A DNA stretch of 64,000 bases, taken from Patescibacteria group bacterium. Its GTDB lineage: Bacteria > Patescibacteriota > Patescibacteriia > XYB2-FULL-38-15. Below, in pieces: positions 2,011 to 64,000 of the stretch. Position numbers and translations under genes: made by a program. The stretch covers positions 91,700-155,699 of the forward strand of contig JBGSRW010000008.1 of assembly GCA_041737355.1 (NCBI GenBank), written 5' to 3'. A model generated the notes under the pieces. The model ran no database searches. It was not told the origin of the DNA and worked only from the letters and a program-made list of their open reading frames with translations. The first letter of the stretch is position 1; every line of letters starts with the position of its first letter.

Positions 2011-2075
2011 ATTAAATCTTTTATGTTTAGTTTAAAATTGTATCATTTTTTGGAATTTTAAGCAACTTTTACTCA

Positions 2076-2104
2076 TTGACAAAAAAAGAGAGGTTTGGTA
2101 GTTT
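2076..2104 (+). promoter_or_regulatory. Sigma70-like promoter of GC-rich cassette A (TTGACA, 16-17 nt spacer, TAGTTT)
   Basis: TTGACA at 2076-2081 and a -10-like hexamer about 17 nt downstream, ahead of a strong SD and ATG 2127. Confidence 0.35.
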
Positions 2105-2126
2105 TAAGGCAGAAAAGGAGGGTGAA

Positions 2127-2357
2127 ATGTCTGACTCCGATCGTCCAACGAGTGAGATGCCAGTTGTCCCGTCATTCCACGTCTGCAAGCCTGATGACGC
2201 GGGCTACTGCGGCGATGCCGGATTAATTTGCGGTAAATGCGGGCACAAAGGGATGGAAACTGACGACGCGGCTCACGAGGGCGACAAGAAAAGGTGCCCA
2301 AGATGCGGTTATGCCACCATCGTCGAATCCGAGACACAGCCGGGTTCGAAAGTATAG
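2127..2357 (+). CDS. Small Cys-rich protein, putative zinc ribbon (GC-rich cassette A)
   Basis: AAGGAGGG SD 6 nt before ATG 2127. The ORF track instead uses an upstream TTG at 2076. CGKCGH and CPRCGY Cys pairs. Coding region visibly G+C-rich compared with neighbours. Confidence 0.5.
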   Translation: MSDSDRPTSEMPVVPSFHVCKPDDAGYCGDAGLICGKCGHKGMETDDAAHEGDKKRCPRCGYATIVESETQPGSKV

Positions 2358-2380
2358 TCTTCTAGGGAAAGGCTAATCTG

Positions 2381-2413
2381 CCGACGCAAAAGGAGAAAGC
2401 GTCGGTTTTTTTA
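2381..2413 (+). terminator. Rho-independent terminator of cassette A
   Basis: Hairpin ccgacgc / gcgtcgg followed by a run of T. Confidence 0.6.
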
Positions 2414-2426
2414 TTATTTTATTTTT

Positions 2427-2435
2427 TGCTATAAT
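2427..2435 (+). promoter_or_regulatory. Extended -10 (TGcTATAAT) for the radical SAM gene, near-leaderless
   Basis: TGCTATAAT ends 6 nt before ATG 2442. No SD. Confidence 0.4.
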
Positions 2436-2441
2436 ATAATT

Positions 2442-3467
2442 ATGAAAGAAGCTTTATTTTACAAGAAAATAAAGGGAAAACGAGTACAATGCCAGGCCTG
2501 CAATCATTATTGCCAAATTGCTCCCGCCAGCCGGGGAATTTGCGGCGTCAGGGAAAATCAAGACGGCAAGCTCTATTCTTTAGTCTACGGAAAAATTATT
2601 GCCAAAAACATTGATCCTATCGAAAAAAAACCGCTGTTCCATTTTTTACCAGGAACAAAAAGCTTATCTATTTCCACAGTTGGTTGTAACTTCCGCTGTT
2701 CTTATTGCCAAAACGCCGACATTGCTCAAATGCCCAAAGAAAATGCTCTCTTTGGCGCGGAAAAAGTTCCCGGAGTTGATTTGTCCCCCGAAGATATCGT
2801 GGAAACCGCGGCTAATGTTAAGTTGCCCAGTATTTCTTACACCTATACCGAGCCGACGGTTTTTGTGGAATTCGCCCTAGACACGATGAAGCTTGCTGAA
2901 AAGAAAAAAATAAAAAATGTTTGGGTCACAAACGGGTATACCAGTAAAGAGGCGTTAAAGGAGATTATCCCCCATCTCGACGCTGCGAATATTGATATCA
3001 AGGGTTTTACCGAAGATTTTTACAATAAAGTTTGTGGCGCGAAATTAAAACCGGTTTTAGAAACTGCGAAGGCAATGAAGCGTGATGGCGTTTGGGTGGA
3101 AGTTACAACGCTTATCGTGCCGGGGCAAAACGATACAGAAGAACACTTCAAGGGAATTGCCGATTTTGTTGCTAAGGAATTGGGAAAAGAAACGCCCTGG
3201 CATCTTTCCAAATTTTTTCCGACTTATAAATTCCGCGATCTGCCGCCCACTCCCCCGTCGTCATTGCTCAGGGCCTATGAATTTGGCGAAAAAGCTGGTT
3301 TAAAATACGTTTATCTCGGTAATCTGCCGTTGCCAGAATATGAAACGACCTTTTGCCGGAAATGCGGAAATAAAATGATTGAACGGGCCGGGTACGAGAT
3401 TGTTCGCCACGATAAAGAAGGCAGATGCACCAAGTGCAAAGAAAATTTAGATTTAATATTAAAATAA
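2442..3467 (+). CDS. AmmeMemoRadiSam-system radical SAM enzyme (AmrS-like)
   Basis: CNFRCSYCQN CxxxCxxC cluster, N-terminal Cys pair and C-terminal CRKCG...CTKC zinc ribbon. Family architecture matches AmrS / PFL-activase-like enzymes. Confidence 0.75.
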   Translation: MKEALFYKKIKGKRVQCQACNHYCQIAPASRGICGVRENQDGKLYSLVYGKIIAKNIDPIEKKPLFHFLPGTKSLSISTVGCNFRCSYCQNADIAQMPKENALFGAEKVPGVDLSPEDIVETAANVKLPSISYTYTEPTVFVEFALDTMKLAEKKKIKNVWVTNGYTSKEALKEIIPHLDAANIDIKGFTEDFYNKVCGAKLKPVLETAKAMKRDGVWVEVTTLIVPGQNDTEEHFKGIADFVAKELGKETPWHLSKFFPTYKFRDLPPTPPSSLLRAYEFGEKAGLKYVYLGNLPLPEYETTFCRKCGNKMIERAGYEIVRHDKEGRCTKCKENLDLILK

Positions 3468-3472
3468 AAATT

Positions 3473-3751: not shown

Positions 3752-3873
3752 TATTCAAGAAGAAAATGCCGGCCCGTGCTAAATAGCGCGGGCTTTTGCT
3801 ATTGACACATTTTTCCGTTGCGCTAAAATATAATTAGCACTCTAAACTTAAGACTGCTAATTTATAAAATACT

Positions 3874-6501
3874 ATGCTTCCGCAAAATTTTACCACCAAA
3901 TCGCAAGAAGCTTTACAAGCTGCTCAGGGATTGGTTTTTGAATACAATCATCAATATTTGGATCCTCTGCACTTGCTTACGGCGCTCTTGGACCAACAGG
4001 GAGGAATAGTCGCTTCCCTTCTCCAAAAATTGGGCGCTAATGCTCTAGATATAAAACAACGGGCTATGCTGGAATTGCAGAAATTGCCAAAACAGACCGG
4101 CCGGCGTCCGGGCGGAGCGGCCCAGATGAACGTTGGCCAAGAAATGGTCCAGGTTTTTTATACCGTGGAAAAAGAAGCCAAGAAAATGAAAGATGATTAT
4201 ATCAGCACCGAGCATTTATTTTTGGGTCTTCTTTCTGTAAAAAGCCGGGCAGGAGACATTTTGGCGGAGGCGGGTTTGAATTATGATCAGGTTTTAAAAG
4301 TTTTGGCCGAAGTCCGCGGTACGCAAAAAGTTGATTCTCCCGAACCGGAAGCCAAATATCAGGTTTTGGAAAAATATACGGTCAATCTGACAGAGCTTGC
4401 CCGAGGGAAAAAACTGGATCCGGTCATTGGCCGCGACGAGGAAATTCGCAGGGTCATGCAAGTTCTTTCCCGCCGGACAAAAAATAATCCGGTGTTGATT
4501 GGCGAGGCCGGCACCGGAAAAACAGCGATCGTTGAAGGTTTGGCGCAAAGAATTGTGGCTGGCGATATACCTGAGAGCTTGAAGGACAAGGAATTAATTT
4601 CTCTTGATCTAGGATCACTGCTTGCCGGAACAAAATTCCGCGGCGAGTTTGAAGATCGCCTGAAAGCTGTTATTAAAGAAGTCAAACAAGCCAGCGGAAA
4701 AATAATTTTATTTATTGACGAACTGCACACTATTGTCGGTGCCGGCGCAATCGAGGGGGCTATGGATGCTTCCAATATGCTGAAACCTGCTTTAGCCCGC
4801 GGTGAACTCCACACCATCGGCGCGACAACCACCAAGGAATATCATAAATATGTGGAAAAAGACGCAGCCTTGGAACGGCGCTTCCAGCCGGTTTTTGTCG
4901 GCGAGCCATCGGTTGAAGATACTATTGCTATCCTGCGCGGCATCAAGGAAAAATACGAAGTGCATCACGGCGTAAAAATTACTGATGCGGCAATTATCGC
5001 AGCAGCGACTCTTTCCCATCGCTATATCTCTGATCGGTTTTTGCCGGATAAAGCGGTTGACTTGATCGACGAAGCCACTTCCGCTCTCAGAATGGAGATT
5101 GACAGTATGCCTACCGAACTCGACCAACTGAAAAGAAAAATGATGAAATTCGAGATTGAACGGCAAGCTCTGCTTAAAGAAAAAGACACGGGGGCCAAGG
5201 ACGAACTAAAAAAAGTAAACAAGGAATTAGCCGAGCTTCAGGAAAAATCCAAAGAGCTGGAAATCGGCTGGCGCTATGAAAAAGATTTAATCAGCCAGAT
5301 CCGCAAGGCGCAAAAACAAATTGATTATTCAAAGCAGCAGGCCGATATTGCCGAACGCAAAGGCGAACTGGAAAAAGTCGCGGAAATCCGTTACGGAAAA
5401 GTTCCTGAATTGGAAAAAGAAATTAGGACACTTGAGAAAAAATTAAAGAAAACCCCCGACGAAAAAAGAATTCTTCGGGAAGAAGTTACCGACGAAGATA
5501 TTGCCCGGGTTGTCTCGCGCTGGACTGGAATTCCGGTGACAAAAATGCTCCAGGGCGAAATTGAAAAATTGGCTCATGCTGAGGAAGAACTCGAGAAAAG
5601 AGTCATCGGACAAAAAGACGCAATCAAAACCATTGCCAACGCCCTCCGCCGTTCACGGGCCGGGATATCTGAAGAAAAGAAACCGATCGGTTCCTTCATT
5701 TTTGTCGGTCCGACCGGGGTCGGTAAAACCGAATTGTCTAAAGCCTTGGCCGAATTTATGTTTAACGACGAAAACGCGCTTGTCCGGGTTGATATGTCGG
5801 AATATATGGAAAAGCACTCCGTAGCGCGGCTTGTCGGTTCCCCTCCCGGCTATGTCGGCCATGAAGAAGGCGGACAATTGACCGAGGCAATCCGTCGACG
5901 GCCGTATTCGGTTGTTCTTTTTGATGAAATCGAGAAAGCCCATCCGGAAGTCTTTAATATCTTACTTCAAATTTTAGATGACGGACGCTTAACCGATGGC
6001 CGCGGTCGGACCGTGAATTTTAAAAACTCTATTATTATTATGACCTCGAATCTCGGCAACCAGGTTATCCGTGATTTTTCCATTGGTTTCCGGGACGGCG
6101 AAAATAAAGAAGCAAGCCGCGACAATGAAATGCGTGACAAGATTATGGAAATTCTTCGTGAAACCTTCAAGCTTGAATTTTTGAACCGTATTGACGAAAC
6201 TGTAATCTTCAAAAGTTTGGGCAAAGCGGAAATCGGAAAAATTATAGAATTGCAATTGGCCGAAGTTCAGAAACGGCTTGATACCAAAAAGATAAAATTG
6301 GAAATTGCCGAGCCGGTTAAAAAAATGCTCGCGGAAAAAGGTTTTGATCCGATTTTCGGCGCCCGACCGCTAAAGCGCGTAATTCAGAATATGATTTTGG
6401 ATGAATTAGCCCTGCGAATCATTGAAGGAAAAGTTAAAGACGGTGATAAAGTCGTGATCGGACTGGATAAAGATAAAAAAATCACTTTCGAGATTAAGTA
6501 G
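3874..6501 (+). CDS. clpB: ATP-dependent chaperone ClpB
   Basis: 875 aa. Two AAA+ modules (GEAGTGKT and GPTGVGKT Walker A) and a long coiled-coil middle domain. ClpB N-domain present. Confidence 0.95.
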
Positions 6502-6541: not shown

Positions 6542-6577
6542 AAAAAAAGGCCGACCCAGGCGAGGTTTTGAGGCCTC
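6542..6577 (-). terminator. Terminator of cassette B (minus strand)
   Basis: aggcc...ggcct hairpin preceded on the plus strand by an A7 run. Confidence 0.5.
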
Positions 6578-6598: not shown

Positions 6599-6997
6599 TT
6601 ATTTGCGCCGCCTCGGTCGTATGCGGGGCGCATTACGAGCCGTCAATTTTTTGAGAGCAGCTCTTTCTGCTTGACGGCACCTCTTCTCAAACAATCGTTT
6701 GAAGTCATCATCATTGTAGTTTTCATGCCAACTGCCGTCGTCATCGCGATAGCGATAGAAGCTCCTAGCGAAAGCAGGCGAGATTGAATTTCTTTGGCAG
6801 GGTGAATCGAGCCCGAATTGGTAAATGAGGACGCAGGTACCATCTTCACCAAAACGAAAATTGTACTCCTCCGCCTCGCGAGCCGCCTTAACAGCAAATA
6901 CGATGTCCTTAGTCACGAGAAAGGGTGTTGTAAAATTTCTGTCGGGGGCTTCTTCGAAGCCCTTCACTTTGTGGCACGCGATTACTACGTAATACAT
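6599..6997 (-). CDS. Hypothetical protein with basic C-terminal tail (GC-rich cassette B)
   Basis: GAGGAGG SD before the ATG at 6997. A TTGACA -35 (plus 7041-7046) lies upstream. 132 aa, MYYVVIACHKVKG..., no family recognised. Confidence 0.45.
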   Translation of the reverse strand: MYYVVIACHKVKGFEEAPDRNFTTPFLVTKDIVFAVKAAREAEEYNFRFGEDGTCVLIYQFGLDSPCQRNSISPAFARSFYRYRDDDGSWHENYNDDDFKRLFEKRCRQAERAALKKLTARNAPRIRPRRRK

Positions 6998-7056
6998 CTT
7001 TTTCCTCCTCTGGGCATACCTTAGATTTTTAGACGTTTGCTGTCAAGGGTAAAATT

Positions 7057-7065
7057 TGCTATAAT
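7057..7065 (+). promoter_or_regulatory. Extended -10 TGcTATAAT for the secreted repeat protein gene
   Basis: 13 nt upstream of ATG 7079. Same architecture as other native genes. Confidence 0.4.
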
Positions 7066-7078
7066 ATTTATAGAAATT

Positions 7079-8482
7079 ATGAAGCTAAAACTACCAAAAC
7101 TTATGCGTATTTTGGCTATATTTGTATTAAGCCAGCTAATGCTAGTTAATCTTGCTTTTGCCGAATTTAATCCTGATTATATTATTTCCGACCAAGAATT
7201 GACAGACCATAACTCAATGTCCTTATCTCAAGTCCAAAGCTTTCTTGAAAGTAAGGGCAGCCCTCTCGCCTCGTACGCGACGATCGATACCGACGGCCTT
7301 GGCCGGACAGCTTCTGAAATTATCTGGCGAGTGGCTCAGGCTTACGAAATCAGCCCGAAAGTTTTACTTGTTACCTTGCAAAAAGAACAAAGTTTAATTA
7401 CTGATACCACTCCGGCGCAAAAACAGCTTGATTGGGCAACCGGCTACGGCGTTTGTGATGATTGTTCACTTTCCGACCCGAGTATTCAAAAATATAAAGG
7501 TTTTGCCACGCAAGTTGACAATACGGCCGGGTGGAAGCGATGGTATTTGGATAATGTTTATACCCTGAACTGGGTTAAGCAGCCGGGTAGAACCTATCTA
7601 ATAGATTCTCAAAGCATTACCCCAAACAATCTGGCCACGGCAAGTTTTTATACTTATACGCCGCACTACAACGGCAATTATAATTTCTGGAAAATATGGC
7701 AGGACTGGTTCGGCAAATTTTTTCCCGACGGCACGGTCTTAAAAGAGCAGGACGGCGAAAATATTTGGCTTATCCAGCGGGGTCTGAAGCGGCAATTTTC
7801 GACCTACTCGTCTTTTGTTTCCCGTTATTCCCCGGAAAAACTTATTAGTGTTTCAAAAAGTGAGCTTGAAAACTATGAGACTGGTACGCCAATTAAATTT
7901 CCGGAGTACTCCCTTCTCCGCTCTCCGGCCGGCACGGTTTACATGATCGTCGGCGACACACGGCGCGGTTTTACCTCAAAGGATGTCTTTAAGACTATTG
8001 GCATTAACCCGGAAGAAATTATTGACATAACCCAGGAAGAAATTGACGCATACATTGAGAGTGACCCGATTACCATGCAAAGTACTTATCCCATGGGAGC
8101 CCTCCTGCAGGATAAAAGAAGCGGCGGAGTTTATTTTGTGGAAAACGGAGTAAAAAAACCGATTTGGGCGAAAGATTTTTTGACTCTTTACTTCAAGAAT
8201 AAAAAAATTACCACGGTCTCCCTCGAGGAACTCAATAAATATGTGACTGGCGAACCGGTTAAATTTAAAGATGGAGAGTTGGTTGTTTCTTCAAGCTCCC
8301 CCACGGTTTACATTATCTCGAATGGAGAGAAGAGGCCGATACCCAGCGAAGAAGTTTTTAACGGTTTGGGCTATCGTTGGACAAATATAGTCAAAACAAC
8401 GGATAAAATTCTATCGCTACATCCGCTTGGCACCCCGGTTTATTTGGGCGGCGCGGTAGAGGCAGCCACTATTAACAAATAA
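7079..8482 (+). CDS. Secreted protein with C-terminal tandem repeats of about 55 aa
   Basis: Signal-peptide/TM segment MKLKLPKLMRILAIFVLSQLMLVNLAFA. Three repeats of the type G(T/G)VY(M/F/I)...G(V/E)(K/R)(K/R)(P/G)I...(V/F). Confidence 0.55.
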   Translation: MKLKLPKLMRILAIFVLSQLMLVNLAFAEFNPDYIISDQELTDHNSMSLSQVQSFLESKGSPLASYATIDTDGLGRTASEIIWRVAQAYEISPKVLLVTLQKEQSLITDTTPAQKQLDWATGYGVCDDCSLSDPSIQKYKGFATQVDNTAGWKRWYLDNVYTLNWVKQPGRTYLIDSQSITPNNLATASFYTYTPHYNGNYNFWKIWQDWFGKFFPDGTVLKEQDGENIWLIQRGLKRQFSTYSSFVSRYSPEKLISVSKSELENYETGTPIKFPEYSLLRSPAGTVYMIVGDTRRGFTSKDVFKTIGINPEEIIDITQEEIDAYIESDPITMQSTYPMGALLQDKRSGGVYFVENGVKKPIWAKDFLTLYFKNKKITTVSLEELNKYVTGEPVKFKDGELVVSSSSPTVYIISNGEKRPIPSEEVFNGLGYRWTNIVKTTDKILSLHPLGTPVYLGGAVEAATINK

Positions 8483-8497: not shown

Positions 8498-9286
8498 ATG
8501 CTCTCTTTCGCGGCATTTACGCCACATCCTCCAATTTTAATTCCGGTTATCGGAAAAGAAAATACGAAAAGAATACAAAAAACATCAGAAGCAATGGAGG
8601 AACTGGAGAAAAAAATATACAACACAAAACCCGATACGGTTATTGTAATTTCTCCGCACGGACCCCTTCTACCCGATGCTTTTTCCATCAATTTGAACCC
8701 AACCTATAAAAGCAATCTTGAAGAGTTCGGAGATTTTGCCACGAAAATGGAATTTAAAACCGATACGGCCCTTGCCTTTAGGATTAAAGAATTAATGGAG
8801 GATAAAAATATTCCTTTAATCATGACGAGCGAAGAATCTCTTGACCACGGCGCAACGGTTCCCCTCTTTTTTTTAGCAAAAAGGCTCGCGGGAATTCCTG
8901 TTCTGCCAATGGGCTATTCCATGCTTGATTTTAAAACGCATTTTAGTTTTGGCGATTTCCTGAAGGAAATAATTCTGAACGAGGAAAAAAAAATCGCCGT
9001 TATTGCCTCGGGCGATCTTTCGCACCGGCTCACAAAGGACGCTCCCGCGGGATTCTCCCCCAGAGGAAAAGAATTTGACGAAAAAATAACCGAACTTTTA
9101 TCCAACAAAAATACGGCCGGCATTTTGGGACTGGACGAAGCTTTTATCGAAGAAGCCGGCGAGTGCGGTCTACGGTCTTTAATTATCCTCCTAGGGCTGC
9201 TTGAGCGGATTAATTACACTCCGGAAATTCTCTCCTACGAGGGGCCGTTTGGTGTCGGATACCTTGTAGCCAATTTTAAATTGTAG
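8498..9286 (+). CDS. AmmeMemoRadiSam system protein B (Memo/LigB-fold)
   Basis: SPHGP, DHG and SGDLSH motifs of the Memo / class III extradiol dioxygenase fold. Immediately upstream of the AMMECR1 gene. Confidence 0.65.
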   Translation: MLSFAAFTPHPPILIPVIGKENTKRIQKTSEAMEELEKKIYNTKPDTVIVISPHGPLLPDAFSINLNPTYKSNLEEFGDFATKMEFKTDTALAFRIKELMEDKNIPLIMTSEESLDHGATVPLFFLAKRLAGIPVLPMGYSMLDFKTHFSFGDFLKEIILNEEKKIAVIASGDLSHRLTKDAPAGFSPRGKEFDEKITELLSNKNTAGILGLDEAFIEEAGECGLRSLIILLGLLERINYTPEILSYEGPFGVGYLVANFKL

Positions 9287-9292: not shown

Positions 9293-9805
9293 ATGAACTC
9301 TTACGTAAAATTAGCCAAGGAGGCCGTTGAATTATATATAAAAACTGGGAAAATACTGCCGGTTCCGATTGATTTGCCGGGAGAAATCCTGCAACGCCGG
9401 GCCGGCGTTTTTGTAAGTATTTATAATGGAGATAACCTGCGCGGCTGTATTGGCACTTATCTTCCTTCCGAAATTAATATTGCTAAAGAAATTATTACTA
9501 ATGCGGTTTCCGCGGCGACTAGGGATTATCGCTTCGATCCGATTACAAAAAAAGAATTAACCGGTCTCTCCTACTCGGTTTACATTCTCGAAGAACCGCG
9601 CCAGATAAAAGACATCAAGGAATTAAATCCAAAAAAATACGGCATTTTGATAAAATCTAAAAAGGGAAAGTCCGGTCTTCTTCTTCCCGATCTTCCCGGA
9701 ATTAATACGATTGAAGGTCAACTCGGCGCTGTTTGTCAAAAATGCGGCGTCAACCCGGAGAGAGAATATATTTCCATTTGGAAATTTGAAGCTAAAAAAT
9801 ATTAG
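9293..9805 (+). CDS. AmmeMemoRadiSam system protein A (AMMECR1 domain)
   Basis: RAGVFVSIY...LRGCIGTY matches the AMMECR1 CxG signature. Confidence 0.75.
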   Translation: MNSYVKLAKEAVELYIKTGKILPVPIDLPGEILQRRAGVFVSIYNGDNLRGCIGTYLPSEINIAKEIITNAVSAATRDYRFDPITKKELTGLSYSVYILEEPRQIKDIKELNPKKYGILIKSKKGKSGLLLPDLPGINTIEGQLGAVCQKCGVNPEREYISIWKFEAKKY

Positions 9806-13207: not shown

Positions 13208-13225
13208 AAATCGTCCGTATAACAC

Positions 13226-13258
13226 AAAACCAGCTGAATAAACAGCTGGTTTTGTTAT
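13226..13258 (+). terminator. Terminator of the def-fmt transcript
   Basis: aaaaccagctg / cagctggtttt hairpin with T-run. Confidence 0.6.
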
Positions 13259-13265
13259 TTACCTC

Positions 13266-13478
13266 TTATCTTGCAAAATTAGCTCTACGCTTTTTGTTGC
13301 AGTCAAAGCAATAAACCGGTCGATCAGCGGCTGGCTTGAAAGGCAGCTCAGTGATCGCCACGCCACAATCCTGACATTTGAGGTTCATGTCGGAGACATT
13401 GAACATCTGGCGTTGTGGTCTGGGGCCGAAGCCACGGTCATCGTTATAGGCCATAAGTTTGGCTGAAGTATCGGTCAT
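13266..13478 (-). CDS. Small CxxC-x17-CxxC zinc-ribbon protein with RG-rich N-terminus (cassette C)
   Basis: CQDCGVAITELPFKPAADRPVYCFDCNKKRR resembles the zinc ribbon often seen at the C-termini of RNA helicases. AAGAGG precedes the ATG. A TTGACA-16-TATAAT promoter lies at plus 13584-13611. Confidence 0.5.
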   Translation of the reverse strand: MTDTSAKLMAYNDDRGFGPRPQRQMFNVSDMNLKCQDCGVAITELPFKPAADRPVYCFDCNKKRRANFAR

Positions 13479-13583
13479 TTTAACTTACGACCTCTTTTGA
13501 TGCTATCTCTAGGATCTATCGTTAAAATTGTCCTACTCTTCGTTCGTCTCCGTCAAAACGGAGACTTATTGAATTATGTCTAT

Positions 13584-13611
13584 ATTATACACTATTCTCC
13601 GGATTTGTCAA
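13584..13611 (-). promoter_or_regulatory. Consensus sigma70 promoter of cassette C, followed by a leader of about 100 nt with a hairpin
   Basis: TTGACA (plus 13606-13611) and TATAAT (plus 13584-13589) with a 16-nt spacer. Leader hairpin gtctccg/cggagac at 13546-13565. Confidence 0.45.
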
Positions 13612-13697
13612 TCCTCGGCGTGAAAAGATAAAAAACGGCGACAGTGAAATTCGCGTTTCAATATCGCCGCAGATGGGAAGGGTTTCTGGTCTCGGCC

Positions 13698-14060
13698 CTA
13701 ACGCACGATCGAAAACTCGCTGAATCCCTGGCCACGGATGGTCACCTTGACGTTGCGTTGCTTGTAGCCGTTCTCGAAGTAGTAACCGCCCACACTCTCA
13801 GCCAAGAGCAACCCCAGTTTCGCGACATCCGCCGCCTCAATCTCGGAAGCGGTTGCCTCGTGGACAAAAATATCAATCTCTACCGGTCCATTCCTCGCGG
13901 GTTCCACCGCGGAATCCCGGGTAGTAAGGTCGATGTCTTCGTCGCTCTTAATGCCGAGCCAACCCATGTTCTTGAGGACCCCCTTGATCCTGCGAAGAAA
14001 GTAGGGATGAACCCGAGCGCGATCTCCTTCATTCCTGACCGCCAATTGCAATTTTCCCAT
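13698..14060 (-). CDS. Hypothetical protein, 120 aa (cassette D)
   Basis: GGAGGGAGG SD 6 nt before ATG 14060. TTGACA-16-TAAAAT promoter at plus 14107-14134. Hairpin plus T-run terminator around 13625-13665. No family recognised. Confidence 0.45.
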   Translation of the reverse strand: MGKLQLAVRNEGDRARVHPYFLRRIKGVLKNMGWLGIKSDEDIDLTTRDSAVEPARNGPVEIDIFVHEATASEIEAADVAKLGLLLAESVGGYYFENGYKQRNVKVTIRGQGFSEFSIVR

Positions 14061-14436
14061 TTTATCCTCCCTCTCTCGCCTCGCCACACCTTATGGCAAG
14101 CTTTGCTTATTTTAGATTAAATACGAAAAATGTCAAGATAAAAAAAGAGCGGCAAAGACTTTCGTCAACGCCGCTCAATGAACAACCGCTCTGGACGTTT
14201 CCGTCCGTTGCGGATTGCTTTCCCGCCCCTTCTCCTTACGGAGTGTTTTCCTTGGCTGGAGAAAAACCGCCGTTGCCGGCCAGGGGCAAGCCGAGTTTGC
14301 TGGTTTTCTATTCGGCTCCGGACTCGGGGCAGAGCCTACAGGAGGTGTGGGCTTGGCGGCCGGAAGGGAAGAAGTGCGCCACCGCCGAACCCGGATGAGC
14401 CAGCTACATCCCCACGGAACAAAGGCGCACTCCTGC

Positions 14437-14508
14437 GTCCCCAACGGGATTTGAACCCGTGCTTCTGACAGCAACGACCAGAGTCCTGACCGCTAGACAA
14501 TGGGGACT
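14437..14508 (-). tRNA. tRNA-like element with a degenerate anticodon loop (possible pseudo-tRNA, tRNA-Gln-like UUG)
   Basis: Perfect 7-bp acceptor stem (gtcccca/tggggac), D arm and T arm with GGTTCAAATCC. Anticodon loop cgTTGct has G at 33 and C at 37, which is non-canonical. No encoded CCA. Confidence 0.4.
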
Positions 14509-14531
14509 TCGCGGCTATTTATTGCCGCGAT

Positions 14532-14795
14532 TTACGGGTTTCTTCCCTGCGGTTGTTGGCGACTGAAGATCCAGACGAAAAATTCCCGGATATTCCGCCA
14601 GAGGAAGACGAGAACCGAACGCACAATCCGCCAGGCCGTCCGCCAGAACCAGTGCCAGATGGCAGTGATTGCCTTCTTGGCCTGCTGACCCATCCAGCGA
14701 AACGCCCGGGCCTTGCCGGTCAGGATGATGCTCGCCCCTTCGAAAGCGATGAGAAAGAGAATAATTCCGCCGATCAGGCTGGACATTTTGTCCAT
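14532..14795 (-). CDS. Small membrane protein, 2-3 TM, Trp/Arg-rich (cassette E)
   Basis: GGGAGG SD before the ATG. TTGACA-17-TATATT promoter at plus 14831-14859. Hydrophobic segments IGGIILFLIAF and SVLVFLW. Confidence 0.45.
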   Translation of the reverse strand: MDKMSSLIGGIILFLIAFEGASIILTGKARAFRWMGQQAKKAITAIWHWFWRTAWRIVRSVLVFLWRNIREFFVWIFSRQQPQGRNP

Positions 14796-14830
14796 TTCTA
14801 ACCTCCCTTACCCATTTTAGGGTACTATAA

Positions 14831-14859
14831 AATATATCAAAGATTTACGGTTTTGTCAA
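14831..14859 (-). promoter_or_regulatory. Consensus sigma70 promoter of cassette E
   Basis: TTGACA and TATATT with an exact 17-nt spacer on the minus strand. Confidence 0.45.
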
Positions 14860-16890: not shown

Positions 16891-16946
16891 CTAGACCGCG
16901 ACCGACGGAGGAACAAACTATCGCCGACTTTTGAAGCGCAAGCTGA

Positions 16947-52909: not shown

Positions 52910-52926
52910 ATTTAAAAATTATTAAT

Positions 52927-54069: not shown

Positions 54070-54344
54070 ACTTTACTGCTTGTTTTATAAATACCCAGGA
54101 GCTCTTCCGCCATGGCCCGCTGTTTGTTCTTATTTTTTCCGAGGGAAACATTCATCACGCATGTATCAAGATGGCTCGACAAAATCAATTCATTGACTTT
54201 ATGCAAAGCATTAATCACCGCCTTATTTTGCTTGATGATATCTATGCAATAAGCGTCTTTTTCAAGCATTTTTTTGATTCCGTCGAGATGCCCCTTAAGA
54301 TAGTTCATTCTTTTAAGACACTCTCTTTTCACCGCTGGTTTCAT
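54066..54344 (-). CDS. csoR: CsoR/RcnR-family metal-sensing transcriptional repressor
   Basis: DUF156 fold with the C...H...C ligand pattern (YCIDI...H...C). First gene of the copper operon. Confidence 0.7.
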   Translation of the reverse strand: MKPAVKRECLKRMNYLKGHLDGIKKMLEKDAYCIDIIKQNKAVINALHKVNELILSSHLDTCVMNVSLGKNKNKQRAMAEELLGIYKTSSKV

Positions 54345-54425: not shown

Positions 54426-54519
54426 TCAGGAAAAACTGCGTCAAGAAAAGTTATCCACAAAGACTCTCCACCTTGACAAAATATAAAAATTAATTCACTC
54501 TTAGAGTAGGAGGTAAGCG

Positions 54520-54978
54520 ATGGTTATTTACGGAAAAGATTTCCCCTTCCTTCTCTATTCCGCCGCCTACCGCATTGTCAAGTTGCAGCCCTACCATTTT
54601 CCCTGGCCGAAGAAGGAGCAATTCTGGAAGGCGCCGCATGAAGTGACGAGCCACGAGCTCTGGCACACGCTCCGAGAACTCTACGTGTGGCTCACGGCTC
54701 ATCACCAGCCGTTCCCTTTTTCGCGGCCGGAAATTTTCGCCGAACCGCAAGAAATGGACGTCGTCGGAATAGCGCAAAACCTGCTCGAAATGGCCATGCT
54801 TGCCATGGAGGGGCATCCGTCGCCTGAAGCGCATCGCAATCCGAAACACTTCGGTGAGTGCCCATTCTGCCTCGGTTGCTACACCAATCTTGTCGGCGCT
54901 TTCGTCGGCAAACTCTACAACGACACGAACTTCCGGCTCACTCTTCTCCGCACTCCATATCAATCTCAGCCGAGTTAA
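54520..54978 (+). CDS. Hypothetical protein, 152 aa, with CPFCLGC motif (cassette K)
   Basis: TAGGAGG SD before the ATG. A TTGACA -35 lies upstream. G+C-rich. Confidence 0.45.
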   Translation: MVIYGKDFPFLLYSAAYRIVKLQPYHFPWPKKEQFWKAPHEVTSHELWHTLRELYVWLTAHHQPFPFSRPEIFAEPQEMDVVGIAQNLLEMAMLAMEGHPSPEAHRNPKHFGECPFCLGCYTNLVGAFVGKLYNDTNFRLTLLRTPYQSQPS

Positions 54979-55043
54979 AAACGCTCATAAAATCCGGTGA
55001 GGACCATCGCTCCAAGGTTTGCCAGACGGCGGACCTTTTTTAT

Positions 55044-55090
55044 TTTACAAAAAGCGCTCCGGAATTTTCCGGAGCGCTTTATAATATTTT
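55044..55090. terminator. Bidirectional terminator between cassette K and secF
   Basis: 9-bp gcgctccgg/ccggagcgc hairpin flanked by A-runs and T-runs. Confidence 0.55.
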
Positions 55091-58317: not shown

Positions 58318-58776
58318 TTAAATTTTCAACAGACTAGCAATAATTAAAACTATTCCTGCGGCCAAAAGACATCCAGCCATTTTACCTACAGCTGAACCCA
58401 ACATAGTACGCTGGTCAGAAATATTATTTTTTCTCATTTTCTCAGCTATATATCCTTCAAATATTCCAGCGATGCCATCTGTTACAGCATTGCCAACGAC
58501 ACCCCCTATTACTGCGCCAATTACTCCTGCCATCTCACCGCCAAAAATCGCCAATATTGCCAAAATACCATTATCAACCAACCCGAAAACAATATCTGCC
58601 CAAATTGTATTGATTGGTATTTTAAAAGGAATTAAGGATAGAAGGCAAAGAATACCTAATCCTAAAATTACCAAACCTATCAATTGAGAATCATAAATAA
58701 AATAAAAACTGACTGCAAAAATAACAATGCAAAGTATAATTATATTTATAATGGCTGAAATAAAATAATTTTTCAT
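58318..58776 (-). CDS. Hypothetical polytopic membrane protein, Gly-rich helices
   Basis: ORF plus hydrophobicity. Confidence 0.4.
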   Translation of the reverse strand: MKNYFISAIINIIILCIVIFAVSFYFIYDSQLIGLVILGLGILCLLSLIPFKIPINTIWADIVFGLVDNGILAILAIFGGEMAGVIGAVIGGVVGNAVTDGIAGIFEGYIAEKMRKNNISDQRTMLGSAVGKMAGCLLAAGIVLIIASLLKI

Positions 58777-61543: not shown

Positions 61544-61552
61544 GTTGATATA

Positions 61553-62095
61553 TTAAGGGACAAATACAGCGGCGGAAATTACCGTTGTCCAGAGGCCGTT
61601 TTTGTCCGCAATGGCCGATTGTGTAATATTGGTTGTTTTAATTATCTTTCCGCTGACTTTGTAAATCTGCTCTCTCTCGTCCCAAGCCTGATTGGAATCG
61701 AATTCGACGCCGAGCGTTGAAGCAAGCATTGAAGCGGCCAGATCTTCCGCGTAGTCGCCGGCCTTCTGATCCGTTTCTCCGAAAGGATGATGCTCGGAAA
61801 GATAACCGTAGTGCGTCGGATCGGACGGCAGAGCTAAACCAATTGACGAGGCGATAAGCCGGTTCGGCTCATTAGTCGCGTTTCTCGCCATAACACAGAA
61901 AACTACTTCTCCGGCCTTCAATTCCGCCAAACCCTGTGTCTTATTTATCATTTTACATCCTGGCGGAAAAATACTCGAGACACAGACAATATTAAATTTC
62001 TCAATTCCGGCATCACGAAGCGCCGCCTCAAAGGCTTGGAGCATTTCTTTGTGCCGACCCACACCTTTGGTAAAGAATACTTTTGTTGGTACCAT
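61553..62095 (-). CDS. pdaD: Pyruvoyl-dependent arginine decarboxylase
   Basis: PdaD-like N-terminus ([13 protein letters not shown]...) and the self-cleavage VSS motif (VCVSSIFPP). Confidence 0.7.
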
Positions 62096-62156
62096 CTCTT
62101 TAAAAATTAGTAATTATCCGCCAGAGGCGGATCCGCCTTGGGCGGAAAAATTAAAA

Positions 62157-62516
62157 TTACTTTAATTCTTTTGCCTTGCGCGCCCCATCTCTCACTCTAT
62201 TAACTTTTTTCTCCCTGTATTCCTCAATCTGGCGCTGCAATTCATCTTTCACTTTAACTATCGCCTGACGCAAATCTTTATTTGTTGCTTCTGCCCGCAA
62301 AATTTTTCCCGGTAAACGGATATCCGCTTCGGCCCGATAAACAAATTCTCCGGTCTTATGGTGCTGGCTTGTGCGGCCTATTTCAACCCATGCCTCAGCC
62401 ACACCGGTCGCGTCATAGTTCCGAATAAATTTTGCCAATCCGCCGATTTTTTCCTCAACAAAAACATCAAGACTTTCGATCGGCTCCAAATTTGTCCACT
62501 TTAAAGAGAGTTTCAT
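62157..62516 (-). CDS. hpf: Ribosome hibernation promoting factor / RaiA
   Basis: Sigma-54 modulation protein fold, 119 aa. Confidence 0.8.
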   Translation of the reverse strand: MKLSLKWTNLEPIESLDVFVEEKIGGLAKFIRNYDATGVAEAWVEIGRTSQHHKTGEFVYRAEADIRLPGKILRAEATNKDLRQAIVKVKDELQRQIEEYREKKVNRVRDGARKAKELK

Positions 62517-62569
62517 AAGAATAATTATTGTATATTAGAACATTTTAAAGCAAAATGCAAAGGGTCCGG

Positions 62570-63544
62570 CTAAAACCCGACATATTCAACTTCTTCCTGG
62601 AGCTGAATGCCGGTCTTATTTCTGACTTCCATTTTAACCAAACTCGCTAAAGCTATAACATTATCGGCTGTGGCTTTGCCCGTGTTCACGATAAAATTGG
62701 CGTGCTTCTCGGAAATTTTCGCTCCGCCGATTTTTCTGTCTTTAAGCTCGCACTTCTCGATAAGCCAGGCTGAAGGGATTTTCCCCTTCTGAATAAAATC
62801 GGCCGGGATATCTTCCTTGAAATGCGACTGGAAAGATTTTATTATCTCGTCGGTTATTTCAATATTTTTGAAAAATGATCCGGCGGACGGCTCTGTCGGA
62901 ATTTTTTCTCCGCGGGCTTTAAAGATTTTTTTCATCTCTTCTTTTATTTTTTCCTTGTCGCCCTTCTCTAATTTTAAAACAACTTTCAAAATAATTCCTC
63001 CTTCACGCTTAAAAATACTATCCCTATATCCGAATCCACATTCTTTCTTCCCATAATTCTTAATTCTCAATTTATGACTTACTAATCGCAAAGCCTCAAC
63101 TTCTTCCACTGCATCGCCCGTTGCCTTGCCGTAAGCTCCGGCATTGCCGCGCACTGCTCCGCCCGCTCTTCCCGGAATTCCGGCTGCCCACTCAAGACCG
63201 GGCAAGCCATTTTCCGCCGCCGCTTCCACTATCTTAGAGAGCAGTACTCCTGAGTCCGCCACAATTCTGCAATTAGTCTTATAGACTGCTAACTTTGAAC
63301 TATCTACTTTTACTACCAAACCGTCGAAACCATTATCAGAAAATAAAATATTGCTTCCGCCGCTGAAAACAAAAAAATTTAATCCCAATTCATTTGCCGT
63401 TTCCACGGCGCGCCTGACTTCCTTCGCACTTTTGGCGACAAAAAAATATCTGGCCGGCCCGCCGATTTTAAAAGTACAATGACTGACGAGCGATTCATTC
63501 TCCAAAACTCCCTCGCCTAATTTTTCTTTCAGTTTATCTATCAT
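62570..63544 (-). CDS. murB: UDP-N-acetylenolpyruvoylglucosamine reductase
   Basis: FAD-binding N-domain (FKIGGPARYF) and MurB C-domain. Confidence 0.85.
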   Translation of the reverse strand: MIDKLKEKLGEGVLENESLVSHCTFKIGGPARYFFVAKSAKEVRRAVETANELGLNFFVFSGGSNILFSDNGFDGLVVKVDSSKLAVYKTNCRIVADSGVLLSKIVEAAAENGLPGLEWAAGIPGRAGGAVRGNAGAYGKATGDAVEEVEALRLVSHKLRIKNYGKKECGFGYRDSIFKREGGIILKVVLKLEKGDKEKIKEEMKKIFKARGEKIPTEPSAGSFFKNIEITDEIIKSFQSHFKEDIPADFIQKGKIPSAWLIEKCELKDRKIGGAKISEKHANFIVNTGKATADNVIALASLVKMEVRNKTGIQLQEEVEYVGF

Positions 63545-63586
63545 AACATCATCAAGTTTAACAGAAATTACTTATAAAAACAAGAA

Positions 63587-63614
63587 TAAAAAAACTGCCC
63601 CTGGTTTTGGGCAG
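63587..63614 (-). terminator. Terminator of cassette L
   Basis: ctgccc/gggcag hairpin with an A8 run on the plus strand, giving T8 on the minus strand. Confidence 0.5.
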
Positions 63615-63637
63615 TTAGCACTCCTTACGCGCGGCTT

Positions 63638-63880
63638 TTATTGAGAGAGAGTCTTGATTACCAGGCCGATAACGTATAGAGCGGCGATTGCGAAAAGAAC
63701 TCTCATCCCGATTTCAAAAATCATTCCGAGGAAACCGGCTATCCACGATCCGCGGCGCGGCGGTTCGGGATCGGGAGATCGCGGCAAACTTTCGCCGAAC
63801 CATTCTTCTCTCCAGGCACTCCTGTTCCGTTCCTTCAAGCTCCTTCTTTCCTCCGGAGAAAGATCGTCGGAACTGCGCAT
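63638..63880 (-). CDS. Small membrane protein with Arg/Ser/Glu-rich cytoplasmic N-terminus (cassette L)
   Basis: GAGAGGAGAG SD before the ATG. G+C-rich. C-terminal TM segment of about 40 aa. Confidence 0.4.
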   Translation of the reverse strand: MRSSDDLSPEERRSLKERNRSAWREEWFGESLPRSPDPEPPRRGSWIAGFLGMIFEIGMRVLFAIAALYVIGLVIKTLSQ

Positions 63881-64000
63881 GGTACTCTCCTCTCTTTCAA
63901 TTTTGTTATATCAATAATCCAGATAATTTACAACCTCGATTGATTACTAATTAAAAATTATGTAAACTCTCTATATATGAAAAGTTATGAATCCGACGAT

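Follow-up and report, generated by a model that had tools for sequence, protein, structure and literature searches.

Among the products of the small genes analysed here, the closest resemblances to described families are to zinc-finger proteins, to the Pfam family Pro_CA_2 and to RlmN/Cfr-like radical-SAM enzymes. The genes lie in a window of 64,000 nt of chromosomal DNA from a Falkowbacteria-like bacterium of the Patescibacteria (CPR), which lives in groundwater and has a tiny genome. An earlier note had described them as G+C-rich mini-cassettes interrupting an AT-rich backbone, and all the cassette sites that it listed are present in the window. The zinc-finger family is represented by C3a (13222..13611, minus strand), in which a consensus promoter (13584-13611) and a 5'UTR of ~100 nt precede the CDS (13266-13478) and a terminator (13222-13253). 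Its 70-aa CxxC-x17-CxxC product matches PF23477 and TIGR04272 (42 bits for the latter; cut-off 36), and its 90% cluster contains Falkowbacteria and Patescibacteria proteins. C6 (19057..19640, minus strand), directly downstream of atpC, has a purine-rich double SD, GGGAGGGGTTAGGAGGAGG, a CDS at 19130-19564 and a terminator at 19057-19084; its 144-aa product, flagged earlier as β-carbonic-anhydrase-like, indeed matches Pro_CA_2 (PF20393; 41 bits, cut-off 30). C7 (26533..28030, minus strand) directly follows an RR-HK pair (28035-30761) and comprises a long 5'UTR with a hairpin (27912-27965), the SD GGAGAG, a CDS of 429 codons (26580-27869) and a terminator (26533-26566). Residues 149-424 form an RlmN/Cfr-like radical-SAM core, at 185 bits for TIGR00048, below the cut-off of 290, and the N-terminal domain matches Response_reg weakly (17.5 bits, E 0.005). 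The core has thousands of distant relatives, and the full architecture is found in only one other 50% cluster.

The remaining cassettes code for small proteins with fewer recognizable features, and mutual comparison of the cassette proteins revealed no relatedness among them. C1 (2076..2412, plus strand; promoter TTGACA-N17-TAGTTT, 2076-2104; SD AAGGAGGG; CDS 2127-2357; terminator 2380-2412) codes for a Cys-rich protein of 76 aa with CxxC pairs, a singleton in the 90% clustering; its GC is 0.56, its GC3 0.61 and its SD dG -12.3. C2 (6542..7046, minus strand; promoter 7018-7046; SD GAGGAGG; CDS 6599-6997; terminator 6542-6577) codes for a 132-aa protein for which a family search gave no match. 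C4 (16344..16966, plus strand) has a TTGACA-N17-TAGATT promoter (16344-16372), a 5'UTR, the SD AAGGAGGG, a CDS of 155 codons (16423-16890) and a terminator (16924-16966), with GC 0.62 and GC3 0.77. The structure model of its product (pLDDT 86.8) is a helix/beta-sheet/helix sandwich, and fold comparison gave no informative match. C5 (18553..19051, plus strand) is the only unit with two genes, C5a (18602-18802, 66 aa) and C5b (18799-19017, 72 aa), which overlap at GTGA and are preceded by the extended -10 TGCTATAAT (18572-18580) and the SD GAGGAGG, with a terminator at 19017-19051; it is the least GC-rich unit (GC3 0.47-0.48). C8 (41055..41434, plus strand; promoter 41055-41083; SD AAGGAGGA; CDS 41126-41377; terminator 41400-41434), divergent from dnaG, codes for a Cys/His-rich protein of 83 aa. 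C9 (54473..55045, plus strand; -35 TTGACA at 54473-54478; SD TAGGAGGT; CDS 54520-54978; terminator 55014-55045) codes for 152 aa with a conserved Cys/His motif, and C10 (63588..63900, minus strand; SD GAGAGGAGAG; CDS 63638-63880; terminator 63588-63614) for an 80-aa protein with a C-terminal TM helix, in a 90% cluster of three members.

One site had to be redrawn. The interval 13266-14859 had been listed as a cassette site, but the segment 14140..14507 contains no ORF: it holds tRNA-Gln(UUG) (14435-14507, minus strand) followed by a ~295-nt GC-rich, structured non-coding stretch that ends in a terminator at ~14143-14180 (folding z = -3.1). A 61-nt core of this stretch is 92% identical in the related genome L003, and an Rfam search with the segment gave no match. 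On either side lies one cassette of the minus strand. C3b (13612..14136) has a promoter at 14109-14136, the SD GGGAGGA, a CDS of 120 codons at 13698-14060 and a hairpin with T-run at ~13620-13660. C3c (14532..14859; promoter 14831-14859; SD AAGGGAGG; CDS 14532-14795; GC3 0.74) codes for a W/R-rich 87-aa protein with an N-terminal TM helix; it has no T-run terminator of its own and is probably co-transcribed with tRNA-Gln by read-through.

Quantitative analyses bore out the distinction between two gene classes. A strong SD (SD/anti-SD duplex dG <= -6 kcal/mol) precedes all 13 cassette ORFs and one of 55 backbone genes, the response regulator at 30084-30761, with mean duplex dG of -10.9 and -0.5 kcal/mol, respectively; the backbone is thus nearly, though not entirely, devoid of SDs as had been claimed. 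GC is 0.54 in cassettes and 0.42 in the backbone (Mann-Whitney p ~1e-8), and GC3 0.60 and 0.43 (p ~2e-6). Composition is far from uniform: cassettes lie at a dinucleotide delta* of 0.161 from the backbone (null 0.031 +/- 0.010), but the two halves of the cassette set are only 0.055 apart and share a signature. Such a signature, far from that of the backbone, is also expected from a common foreign source.

The expression signals are somewhat less uniform than first described. A near-consensus promoter had been reported at every site; of the 11 exact matches to TTGACA-N16-18-TANNNT in the window, seven lie at cassettes (C1, C2, C3a, C3b, C3c, C4 and C8). TTGACA itself is present in 8 of 12 units, C9 combining it with a poor -10, whereas C5 has the backbone-type TGCTATAAT and no clear -35 was seen at C6, C7 or C10. 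Intrinsic terminators (hairpin and T-run) follow 11 of the 12 units, all except C3c. As for the backbone, said to start 6-13 nt behind TGcTATAAT, a leaderless-type TATAAT ends 4-15 nt ahead of the ATG in 16 of 58 genes, 7-8 of them convincing, and the others are internal operon genes. The cassettes do lie between intact backbone genes, none of which is disrupted, but that they were 'inserted' there is an interpretation, not an observation.

We found same-slot orthologues of seven cassette genes (C3a, C3c, C4, C6, C7, C8 and C9) in at least five independent assemblies of relatives from different samples, whose backbone proteins are 56-96% identical. Since related genomes hold these genes at the same places, an observation that the earlier note had named as refuting its reading, the cassettes appear to be long-standing residents rather than fresh foreign insertions. 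Along with the position, L003, L083, L084, L086, L087/L089, L097 and L100 have kept the promoter, 5'UTR, SD and terminator. C3a occupies the identical slot in all four relatives (79-84% identity), in which C6 also has orthologues, and C3c has homologues in the identical slot of L003 and L086 (37-48%). C4 is found in the same slot of L083, L084 (three tandem paralogues), L086 and L003 with all its signals kept. C7 follows the RR-HK pair in L100 as well (DnaG 61% identical), with its SD retained; L003 has a truncated copy, and L086 a radical-SAM gene at the corresponding place. The L097 orthologue of C8 (70% identity, GC3 0.77) has the same promoter and UTR, and in L087 and L089 the C9 slot, adjoining secF (93% identical), holds a 225-aa homologue (37-40% identity) that aligns with C9 in its promoter, SD, initial codons and terminator.

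The slots show gene flux through losses, duplications and replacements, and the coding sequences diverge, duplicate and disappear much faster than their flanks while the expression signals stay conserved. At the C8 slot, the closest relative, L095, has no gene but a spacer of 99 nt, and L096 has an AT-rich 228-aa gene (GC3 0.28); the C9 slot is empty in L088. The C2 slot of L083 contains a different GC-rich sequence without homology to C2. C5 is largely missing from the relatives, its slot in L083 being taken by a second Pro_CA_2 paralogue. C3b has weak homologues only (27% in L086), and L003 has a diverged ORF of similar placement behind the conserved promoter. The cassette proteins are under purifying selection (omega 0.07-0.47).

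The G+C-rich codon usage persists across lineages. GC3 of C4 orthologues is 0.77-0.84 in four lineages, against 0.33-0.45 for flanking genes of the same genomes, even though comparison of the window with L084 or L086 shows saturation at 4-fold sites (differences of 0.48-0.58; flanks 0.49-0.62). GC-richness is therefore being maintained and is not the waning trace of a donor. Likewise, GC3 is 0.76 and 0.77 for C8 in two lineages and 0.65-0.69 for C9 in three; for C7, the excess is small in the more distant L100 (0.34 vs ~0.27). In 139 genes from six loci of relatives, with gene calls made independently of us, a strong SD and GC3 excess go together: 14 genes have both, two a strong SD without excess, eight an excess without SD and 115 neither (Fisher p = 6e-12, odds ratio ~100). 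Of those eight, four result from miscalled start codons and two are copies of atpE, which codes for the ATP-synthase subunit required in the highest copy number. No backbone gene exceeds atpE in NNC fraction, and its GC3 is among the highest, which fits GC3 following expression level. In cassettes, the NNC fraction is 0.66 vs 0.33 in two- and three-fold boxes, and only 0.59 vs 0.55 in Ala/Gly/Pro/Thr boxes. In C4 and C8, conservation is greatest at two-fold Y sites (differences of 0.08-0.19 vs 0.24-0.32 in most flanks). Lys, Glu and Gln codons are shifted to G-ending, which is not a classical signature of translational selection.

A possible, if unlikely, alternative is a pool of G+C-richer, SD-using genes circulating laterally, from an unsampled donor, the bacterial host of this probable episymbiont or an unrecognized mobile element, and re-entering or being exchanged at a few permissive slots, so that their composition is that of the pool. 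Other than the common dinucleotide signature, the patchy presence of C2, C5, C8 and C9 and the tRNA gene adjoining one island are in line with it. Between the window and L083, C4 shows excess similarity at all classes of synonymous site (88% aa identity, dS 0.33 and a 4-fold difference of 0.28, against dS of 1.2-1.5 and 0.50-0.62 for the flanks), and its tree is incongruent with that of the backbone; this excess similarity and tree conflict imply that some lateral movement occurs within the clade, with at least one exchange. The dS of C8 is also low (0.55 vs 2.2 for dnaG). However, most orthologue pairs (C4 vs L084/L086, C6, C9) have diverged at least as far as their flanks, and the promoters and terminators of different lineages can be aligned, as expected of in-situ orthologues. 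Protein searches traced no cassette to the higher-GC donor suggested earlier, the matches to the C7 core coming without taxonomy; phage, plasmid, IMG/VR, PHROG and PADLOC searches gave no matches that would point to a mobile-element source, and no integrase, repeats or att-like duplications were found. The C4 family comprises only 18 proteins among 5.8e9 searched, the three looked up all being in this syntenic context, and the protein search gave no C9 homologue outside its own cluster. Lastly, composition follows expression mode, not ancestry, in L083: the C6 orthologue 13 nt after atpC, absorbed into the atp operon, has no SD and a GC3 of 0.28, and the distal paralogue has kept its SD and a GC3 of 0.69.

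It is less probable still that the slots recombine often between clade members and that GC-biased gene conversion thereby raised both their GC content and their apparent divergence, with SDs a secondary adaptation to structured GC-rich mRNAs. The slots are turnover hot spots with at least one intra-clade exchange, and cassette mRNAs have the more stable folds per nucleotide (-0.32 vs -0.26 kcal/nt; initiation-region fold -4.4 vs -2.5). Yet GC-richness tracks the transcribed unit, promoters and spacers within the slots remaining AT-rich, and 4-fold Ala/Gly/Pro/Thr sites are hardly shifted; other variable slots hold AT-rich genes, such as 58318-58776 (GC3 0.24) and the L096 gene mentioned above. 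Selfish mini-cassettes, integron-cassette-like, MITE-like or IS-derived, could account for dispersed single-gene units with presence/absence polymorphism in spacers, but are very improbable: the cassettes have no repeats in common, whether direct, inverted or terminal, and we found no attC-like sites, target duplications, nearby recombinase or other mobility genes, and no defence homologues; upstream, only the -35 box and SD are common, and each family of these unrelated proteins keeps to one fixed slot across genomes. Recent insertion, engineering or assembly chimerism, suggested by clean boundaries, textbook-like signals and the sharp GC step, is refuted by the same sequence and cassettes in a separate Logan assembly, by same-slot orthologues in NCBI, JGI and Logan assemblies of other samples, one of them a chromosome-scale record of 886 kb, and by orthologue protein divergence of 12-63%, which is incompatible with recent insertion.

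With slightly better than even confidence, we favour the view that the cassettes are native and lineage-specific, were for the most part inherited vertically, and make up a second expression class alongside housekeeping genes that are translated in SD-less fashion. Backbone operons would be expressed from extended -10 promoters, with leaderless starts or AU-rich unstructured leaders. A cassette gene would typically be a monocistronic unit with a sigma-70 promoter, usually with a consensus -35 box, a 5'UTR of 20-100 nt, a strong GGAGG-type SD and a coding sequence biased towards C- and G-ending codons, above all two-fold NNC codons and ATC, CTC and GTC, closed by an intrinsic terminator. The transcripts would depend on SD/anti-SD pairing and, judging from signal strength and codon pattern, probably be strongly expressed, and selection, rather than passive inheritance from a donor, would hold the G+C-rich codon usage together with SD-led initiation. 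The intergenic slots are gene-turnover hot spots, in which genes are duplicated in tandem, different paralogues are lost, whole genes are cleanly deleted and exchange within the clade happens now and then, their zinc-ribbon or Cys-rich, small membrane, beta-CA-like and receiver-like/RlmN-like proteins evolving much faster than the flanks. A dispersed regulon, as proposed earlier, is conceivable, but upstream the cassettes have only the -35 box and the SD in common. Overall, the class is probably clade-wide, SD-dependent and strongly expressed.

All of the G+C-rich sites that the earlier note had taken for possible foreign insertions exist in the window. We curated 13 ORFs in 12 such units, called cassettes here: C1 (2127-2357), C2 (6599-6997), C3a (13266-13478), C3b (13698-14060), C3c (14532-14795), C4 (16423-16890), the C5a/C5b pair (18602-19017), C6 (19130-19564), C7 (26580-27869), C8 (41126-41377), C9 (54520-54978) and C10 (63638-63880). 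They were compared with 55 curated backbone genes, i.e. the remaining AT-rich genes, and a Shine-Dalgarno sequence (SD) was considered strong if its duplex with the 16S tail reached -6 kcal/mol or lower. All 13 cassette ORFs have a strong SD (mean -10.9), vs one of the 55 backbone genes (mean -0.5); the claim that no native gene has an SD thus holds for the other 54. The cassettes are indeed richer in G+C than the backbone (GC 0.54 vs 0.42; GC3 0.60 vs 0.43). SD-led ORFs represent about a fifth of the ORFs of the window, and their products are unrelated. The other proposed signals are less uniform. Consensus promoters were found for about two thirds of the units: the exact motif TTGACA-N16-18-TANNNT occurs 11 times in the window, including seven times at cassettes, while C9 has a -35 box only, C5 a backbone-type promoter (TGCTATAAT), and C6, C7 and C10 no clear -35 box. 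A hairpin followed by a T-run closes 11 of the 12 units. Transcription of the cassettes is predicted to begin 7-8 nt past the -10 box. Leaderless-type starts, attributed to native genes in general, were seen at operon-first genes and nowhere else. The only upstream k-mers common to the cassettes are the -35 box and the SD. Once base composition is corrected for, the pooled cassettes have a dinucleotide signature at a delta* of 0.161 from that of the backbone, with same-size random backbone samples at 0.031 +/- 0.010 and two halves of the cassettes 0.055 apart. A G+C-rich patch at 46200-46800 was examined as a missed cassette and ruled out, as it is the C-terminal tail of a DEAD-box helicase.

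The window has a G+C content of 43.9% over its 64 kb and harbours ordinary bacterial housekeeping genes. The backbone includes clpB, the AmmeMemoRadiSam trio, priA, def, fmt, a complete F-type ATP synthase operon, a two-component system, metG, dnaG-rpoD, secA, secDF, a copper-resistance operon and hpf. An identical sequence is also found in a separate Logan assembly of SRR28170473. According to GTDB, the closest species-level relative is a 'Candidatus Falkowbacteria' groundwater MAG, and all named homologues are from Patescibacteria. For comparison we used syntenic loci of relatives from independent assemblies: L003 (Falkowbacteria JACRNW01), L086 (JGI 3300048655), L083 and L096 (GCA_041650995.1), L084 and L097 (OZ246416.1, 886 kb), L100 (GCA_037440105.1), and L087/L095, L088 and L089 (JGI metagenomes). 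Their backbone proteins are 56-96% identical to those of the window.

Some features of the backbone deserve mention in their own right. The AmmeMemoRadiSam components (radical-SAM enzyme TIGR04337, Memo and AMMECR1) are split (2442-3467, 8498-9286 and 9293-9805), being separated by clpB, C2 and a gene for a 467-aa protein of unknown function. The clpB leader (3802-3873) has consensus -35 and -10 boxes (3802-3829) and, behind them, a CIRCE-like inverted repeat, TTAGCACTC-N9-GACTGCTAA, which suggests HrcA-type heat-shock control of clpB. The NAGPA-domain gene (35765-36976) contains an internal 130-nt direct repeat (36567-36873; 72% identity, spacing 177 nt). Lastly, the region 14140-14507, which lies within the cassette site 13266-14859 of the earlier note, is not an ORF and comprises a tRNA-Gln gene (14435-14507) and, 3' of it on the minus strand, a G+C-rich non-coding stretch of ~295 nt (14140-14434) that ends in an intrinsic terminator. 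The folding of this stretch beats that of all 200 dinucleotide shuffles (z = -3.1), and L003 shares a 61-nt core (14278-14338) at 92% identity. An Rfam search of the window at E <= 0.1 returned three tRNAs only, with no match for this stretch. It is a candidate structured RNA that might be co-transcribed with tRNA-Gln, and perhaps also with C3c. The tRNA-Gln homologue of L003 (18040-18135), uncalled by ARAGORN, has an insertion of ~31 nt around the anticodon arm and may be intron-containing or disrupted.

All-against-all BLASTP of the cassette proteins gave nothing meaningful; they are mutually unrelated, which rules out a single family. C3a is a CxxC-x17-CxxC zinc-finger protein (TIGR04272, 42.1 bits for a cut-off of 36; PF23477, 41.7 for a cut-off of 27) conserved at >= 90% identity across several Patescibacteria. 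C6 matches the putative carbonic anhydrase family Pro_CA_2 (PF20393, 41.2 bits for a cut-off of 30), as do its orthologues. C7 has an RlmN/Cfr-like radical-SAM core that scores 185 bits against TIGR00048, below the cut-off of 290 and over model positions 78-342 only. It is therefore not a full-length RlmN/Cfr methyltransferase by that model, and a weak receiver-like domain takes the place of the RlmN N-terminal domain. C7 lies right behind paired genes for a histidine kinase and a response regulator; its sequence and setting make it reasonable to guess at an RNA methyltransferase under kinase control. A long, near-perfect hairpin (CTAAGTAGTCTGTC...GACAGGCTACTTAG; 27912-27965) in the C7 5'UTR has no Rfam match and may be a regulatory element. 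Cys and His abound in C1, C5a, C5b, C8 and C9, and small membrane proteins are encoded by C3c and C10. C5a and C5b overlap by GTGA, and neither has a PHROG match. The predicted structure of C4 is a confident helix/beta-sheet/helix sandwich for which a fold search gave no informative match. In L086, the C3 slot, i.e. its intergenic position, harbours an SD-led gene for a 195-aa protein (6860-7447; GC 0.64, GC3 0.85) with an AMMECR1 Pfam match. Its N-terminal half resembles C3b, and by BLASTP the protein is not significantly similar to the AMMECR1 encoded in the L086 backbone at that locus. Omega values of 0.07-0.47 indicate that the cassette products are real proteins under constraint.

Analyses of the relatives revealed that most cassette families are fixed in position across the clade. 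C3a (79-84% identity), C4 and C6 were found in four of four relatives, with three tandem C4 paralogues in L084 and only a divergent one in L003, and C3c in two of four. The position of C7 after the kinase and regulator pair is kept even in L100, whose DnaG is 61% identical. C8 has an orthologue in L097 with 70% identity and the same promoter and 5'UTR; its slot is an empty 99-nt spacer in the closest relative, L095, and holds an AT-rich gene in L096. C9 looked orphaned in a word-based search, which detected no homologue outside its own cluster. Its slot in L087 and L089 harbours a gene for a 225-aa homologue (37-40% identity) adjoining a 93% identical secF, with alignable promoter, SD, first codons and terminator. 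In C4 and C6, conservation between genomes extends to single bases in the -35 and -10 boxes, the 5'UTR, the SD and the terminator. In the window, SDs are scarce on backbone genes and strong on the cassettes, and cassette orthologues keep them, including in the distant L100. The slots of C8 in L095 and C9 in L088, both empty, are best explained by loss, since the genes persist in more distant relatives.

Gene content also varies outside the cassettes. L088 and L089 lack the copper operon (csoR, a DsbD-cupredoxin protein gene and copA; 50672-54344). In these two loci secF adjoins a glutaredoxin-like gene directly, with or without the C9 homologue; L088 retains a 20-codon copA remnant. The operon is an accessory island of normal composition. 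Another variable slot harbours an AT-rich orphan (58318-58776; 152 aa, GC 0.33, GC3 0.24) without SD, and in L087 the same slot harbours a 95-aa ORF and genes for a DUF559-like endonuclease and a NUDIX hydrolase; thus, variable slots are not all G+C-rich.

The G+C-rich codon use of the cassettes is a maintained state. The GC3 of C4 orthologues is 0.77-0.84 in four genomes, vs 0.33-0.45 for neighbouring genes. Between the window and L084 or L086, 4-fold sites of C4 differ at 0.48-0.58, and those of the flanking genes are equally saturated (0.49-0.62). By this stage the imprint of a donor would have decayed. Similarly, GC3 is 0.76 and 0.77 in the C8 orthologues, and 0.65-0.69 in those of C9 at only 37% protein identity.

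Comparisons of start regions indicate that cassette composition is coupled to the initiation mode. The C6 orthologue of L083, 13 nt after atpC, has lost its SD and has a GC3 of 0.28. It belongs to a tandem of Pro_CA_2 paralogues of opposite styles (L083, 12196-13184): the one joined to the atp operon lacks an SD and is AT-rich, and the distal one is G+C-rich (GC3 0.69) and led by a double SD. L003 retained the distal type only, and the window the proximal type only. Among 139 genes of the relatives, as called by the gene finder of the collection, a strong SD is associated with a GC3 excess with an odds ratio of ~100 (p = 6e-12); the eight exceptions include four start-codon miscalls and two atpE genes. 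The coding sequences of the cassettes turn over much faster than their flanks, and the expression signals persist: C9 is 37% identical to its homologue vs 62-97% for flanks, C3b and C2 can no longer be recognised in relatives or have been replaced there, and C4 and C6 underwent tandem duplication followed by differential paralogue loss.

The codon shift lies mostly in two- and three-fold boxes, where the fraction of C-ending codons (NNC) is 0.66 vs 0.33 in the backbone; ATC, CTC, GTC, AAG and GAG are raised, with G-ending Lys, Glu and Gln codons also enriched. In the Ala, Gly, Pro and Thr boxes the shift is just 0.59 vs 0.55. C4 and C8 have the strongest bias (GC3 about 0.77, NNC 0.81-0.85) together with apparently lowered synonymous divergence, and two-fold pyrimidine sites are their most conserved synonymous class. 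Differences at these sites amount to 0.08-0.19, vs 0.24-0.32 in most flanks, from 12-23 sites and with one pair confounded by probable exchange; atpC is an outlier among the flanks (5/12 = 0.42). In the backbone, atpE, whose product is the ATP-synthase subunit required in the largest number of copies, has the top NNC fraction (0.50) and one of the highest GC3 values, and it stands out again in L083 and L086. The codons, consensus -35, strong SD and strong terminator together would give the cassettes the look of strongly expressed genes. From this combination of codon pattern and strong signals, we favour the explanation that selection tied to high, SD-dependent expression keeps the cassettes G+C-rich.

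Sharp and Li are said to have related, in 1987, codon bias to synonymous rate in highly expressed enterobacterial genes. C4 and C8 seem to follow that pattern, with strong bias and reduced synonymous divergence especially at two-fold pyrimidine sites, and atpE goes in the same direction. Unlike in the enterobacterial pattern, G-ending Lys, Glu and Gln codons are also up, and the expression level of the cassettes is deduced. Strong translational selection is not expected in slow-growing symbionts with small genomes.

Cassette mRNAs are predicted to fold more stably than those of the backbone (-0.32 vs -0.26 kcal/nt), and their initiation regions are more structured (-4.4 vs -2.5 kcal/mol). Shuffling revealed no evolved specific fold in the coding regions of the cassettes (mean z about -0.3, the same as for backbone controls). 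As established in other phyla, SD-less initiation relies on unstructured, AU-rich starts. By extension from those phyla, a G+C-rich message would need an SD, and the stable cassette mRNAs are consistent with such a requirement once the message is G+C-rich.

Could the cassettes instead stem from a laterally circulating, G+C-richer, SD-using gene pool, by exchange within the clade and including an ancient external origin? We find this rather unlikely as a general explanation. Their common dinucleotide signature is as expected from a single source, although the preferred ATC, TTC, GTC and CTC codons alone lift TC/GA, one of the main differences. C4 is too similar between the window and L083 at all synonymous classes (4-fold differences 0.28; dS 0.33 vs 1.2-1.5 for flanks) and conflicts with the backbone tree, where L083 clusters with L084 and L003; C8 shows the same excess similarity, more weakly. 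Given these excess similarities, the tree conflict and the signature, some intra-clade lateral exchange of cassettes is probable.

The idea of mobile or selfish cassettes fares less well. No direct or shared repeats, common ends, attC sites or terminal repeats were found among the cassettes or at their borders, and no integrase or recombinase is present among the annotated genes of the window; the units are scattered over 62 kb, not arrayed. Without repeats and mobility genes, and with fixed slots, the defining features of integron-like or transposable cassettes are gone. Integron cassettes are promoterless, carry attC, are arrayed beside intI/attI and move by site-specific recombination. The cassettes resemble them as single, mostly small ORFs of unrelated function, conceived as units open to exchange; they differ by having their own promoters and by lacking attC, an intI/attI array and features of site-specific recombination. 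PHROG searches yielded marginal scores only (E 0.001-0.006), a PADLOC scan of cassettes outside the C5 pair gave no match, IMG/VR contained no relatives of C4, C2 or C9, and tblastn against PLSDB and INPHARED matched no cassette. Neither a donor lineage nor homologues outside the recipient clade were identified for C4, C9 or the full-length C7 architecture. The C4 family has 18 members among 5.8 billion clusters searched, and the three that we looked up are all in the synteny of the window; a single further 50% cluster, from the genome of L100, has the complete C7 architecture. Neither integron cassettes nor MITEs describe the cassettes, which also do not appear to form a defence or TA system of a recognisable kind. 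Recent foreign insertion, engineering and assembly chimerism, for which the earlier note had named same-slot orthologues as the decisive test, are ruled out by such orthologues of C3a, C3c, C4, C6, C7, C8 and C9 in independent assemblies and by the lack of repeats and mobility genes. The foreign, mobile or engineered reading is therefore largely rejected.

In streamlined genomes, islets and ORFans are small genes of unknown function between conserved operons, with atypical G+C, presence/absence polymorphism and fast evolution. The cassettes share these traits, being small, located between conserved operons, atypical in G+C, patchy among close relatives and fast-evolving. They differ in that their composition is maintained past 4-fold saturation and flips when the SD is lost, with no decay of a donor imprint, and in that they lack mobility genes or repeats and mostly belong to families fixed in position across the clade.

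We searched the window and 10 kb on each side for ribosomal-protein genes as a codon-usage reference; none was found, and one further cassette was detected. It lies ~5 kb past the right end of the window (4833-5342 of locus L099) and codes for a 169-aa protein with N-terminal TM helices (GC 0.60, SD AAGGAGGAG). Cassettes are less dense outside the window (1-2 per 20 kb) than inside (13 per 64 kb). In the atp-operon surroundings of distant CPR loci (Buchanan-, Kuenen-, Magasanik- and other Falkowbacteria; 10-20 kb per genome), no G+C-rich GGAGG-led genes were found. Over the 10-20 kb seen per distant genome, the pattern appears to be confined to the Falkowbacteria-like clade. The literature searched contained nothing relevant on SD or leaderless usage in CPR. 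Altogether, the cassettes appear to form a class of small genes found across the clade, evolving fast and with a G+C-richness that is maintained and coupled to the SD, in a CPR genome where SDs are otherwise lacking.

The nearest system in operation, likened here from the SD pattern of the genes, may be the SD-led rpsU of Bacteroidia. In these bacteria nearly all genes lack an SD, and essentially one gene, rpsU, has a strong, conserved, extended SD (< -13 kcal/mol); on most ribosomes the anti-SD is sequestered by bS21, through its C-terminal residues, together with bS18 and bS6, and the single SD-bearing mRNA is translated by ribosomes that lack bS21. In Flavobacterium johnsoniae, translation of such an mRNA falls preferentially to a sub-population of ribosomes with a free anti-SD, which constitutes a translational switch (PMC9976891; PMC7797042; PMC13000453). 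The window is similarly SD-poor, with a minority of genes that have strong conserved SDs. Unlike rpsU, the cassettes represent a whole class of unrelated genes, in another phylum, with SDs coupled to G+C-rich codons and -35 promoters.

A bolder and, in our view, improbable extension is that initiation is bimodal in the Falkowbacteria-like clade, with the SD-led, G+C-rich genes as a regulon gated at translation. SD-ignoring ribosomes would read most mRNAs through leaderless or AU-rich initiation, and perhaps 10-20% of genes, all of them lineage-specific and fast-evolving, would be translated efficiently only with the anti-SD available. Gating might involve a ribosome sub-population, the growth or attachment state, or rRNA modification, the RlmN/Cfr-like C7 adjoining a two-component system, and codon usage would have co-evolved with the initiation mode. 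If true, this would extend the single-gene case of specialised ribosomes in Flavobacteria to a whole CPR gene class.

That a dozen textbook-looking 'insertions' proved to be conserved residents is a caution. Compositional 'foreignness' can be a state that is maintained and linked to expression, and not evidence of recent transfer, which matters for every composition-based method of HGT detection. CPR/Patescibacteria account for much of bacterial diversity, and the majority of their small lineage-specific genes lack an explanation. The importance of the finding would rise sharply if expression or ribosome data revealed that two translation regimes truly coexist. Should the division into two gene classes extend to the whole genome, SD strength and GC3 would provide a simple rule to find the genes most likely to underlie this lineage's special biology, and the clade would offer a natural system in which SD-dependent and SD-independent initiation coexist in one cell.
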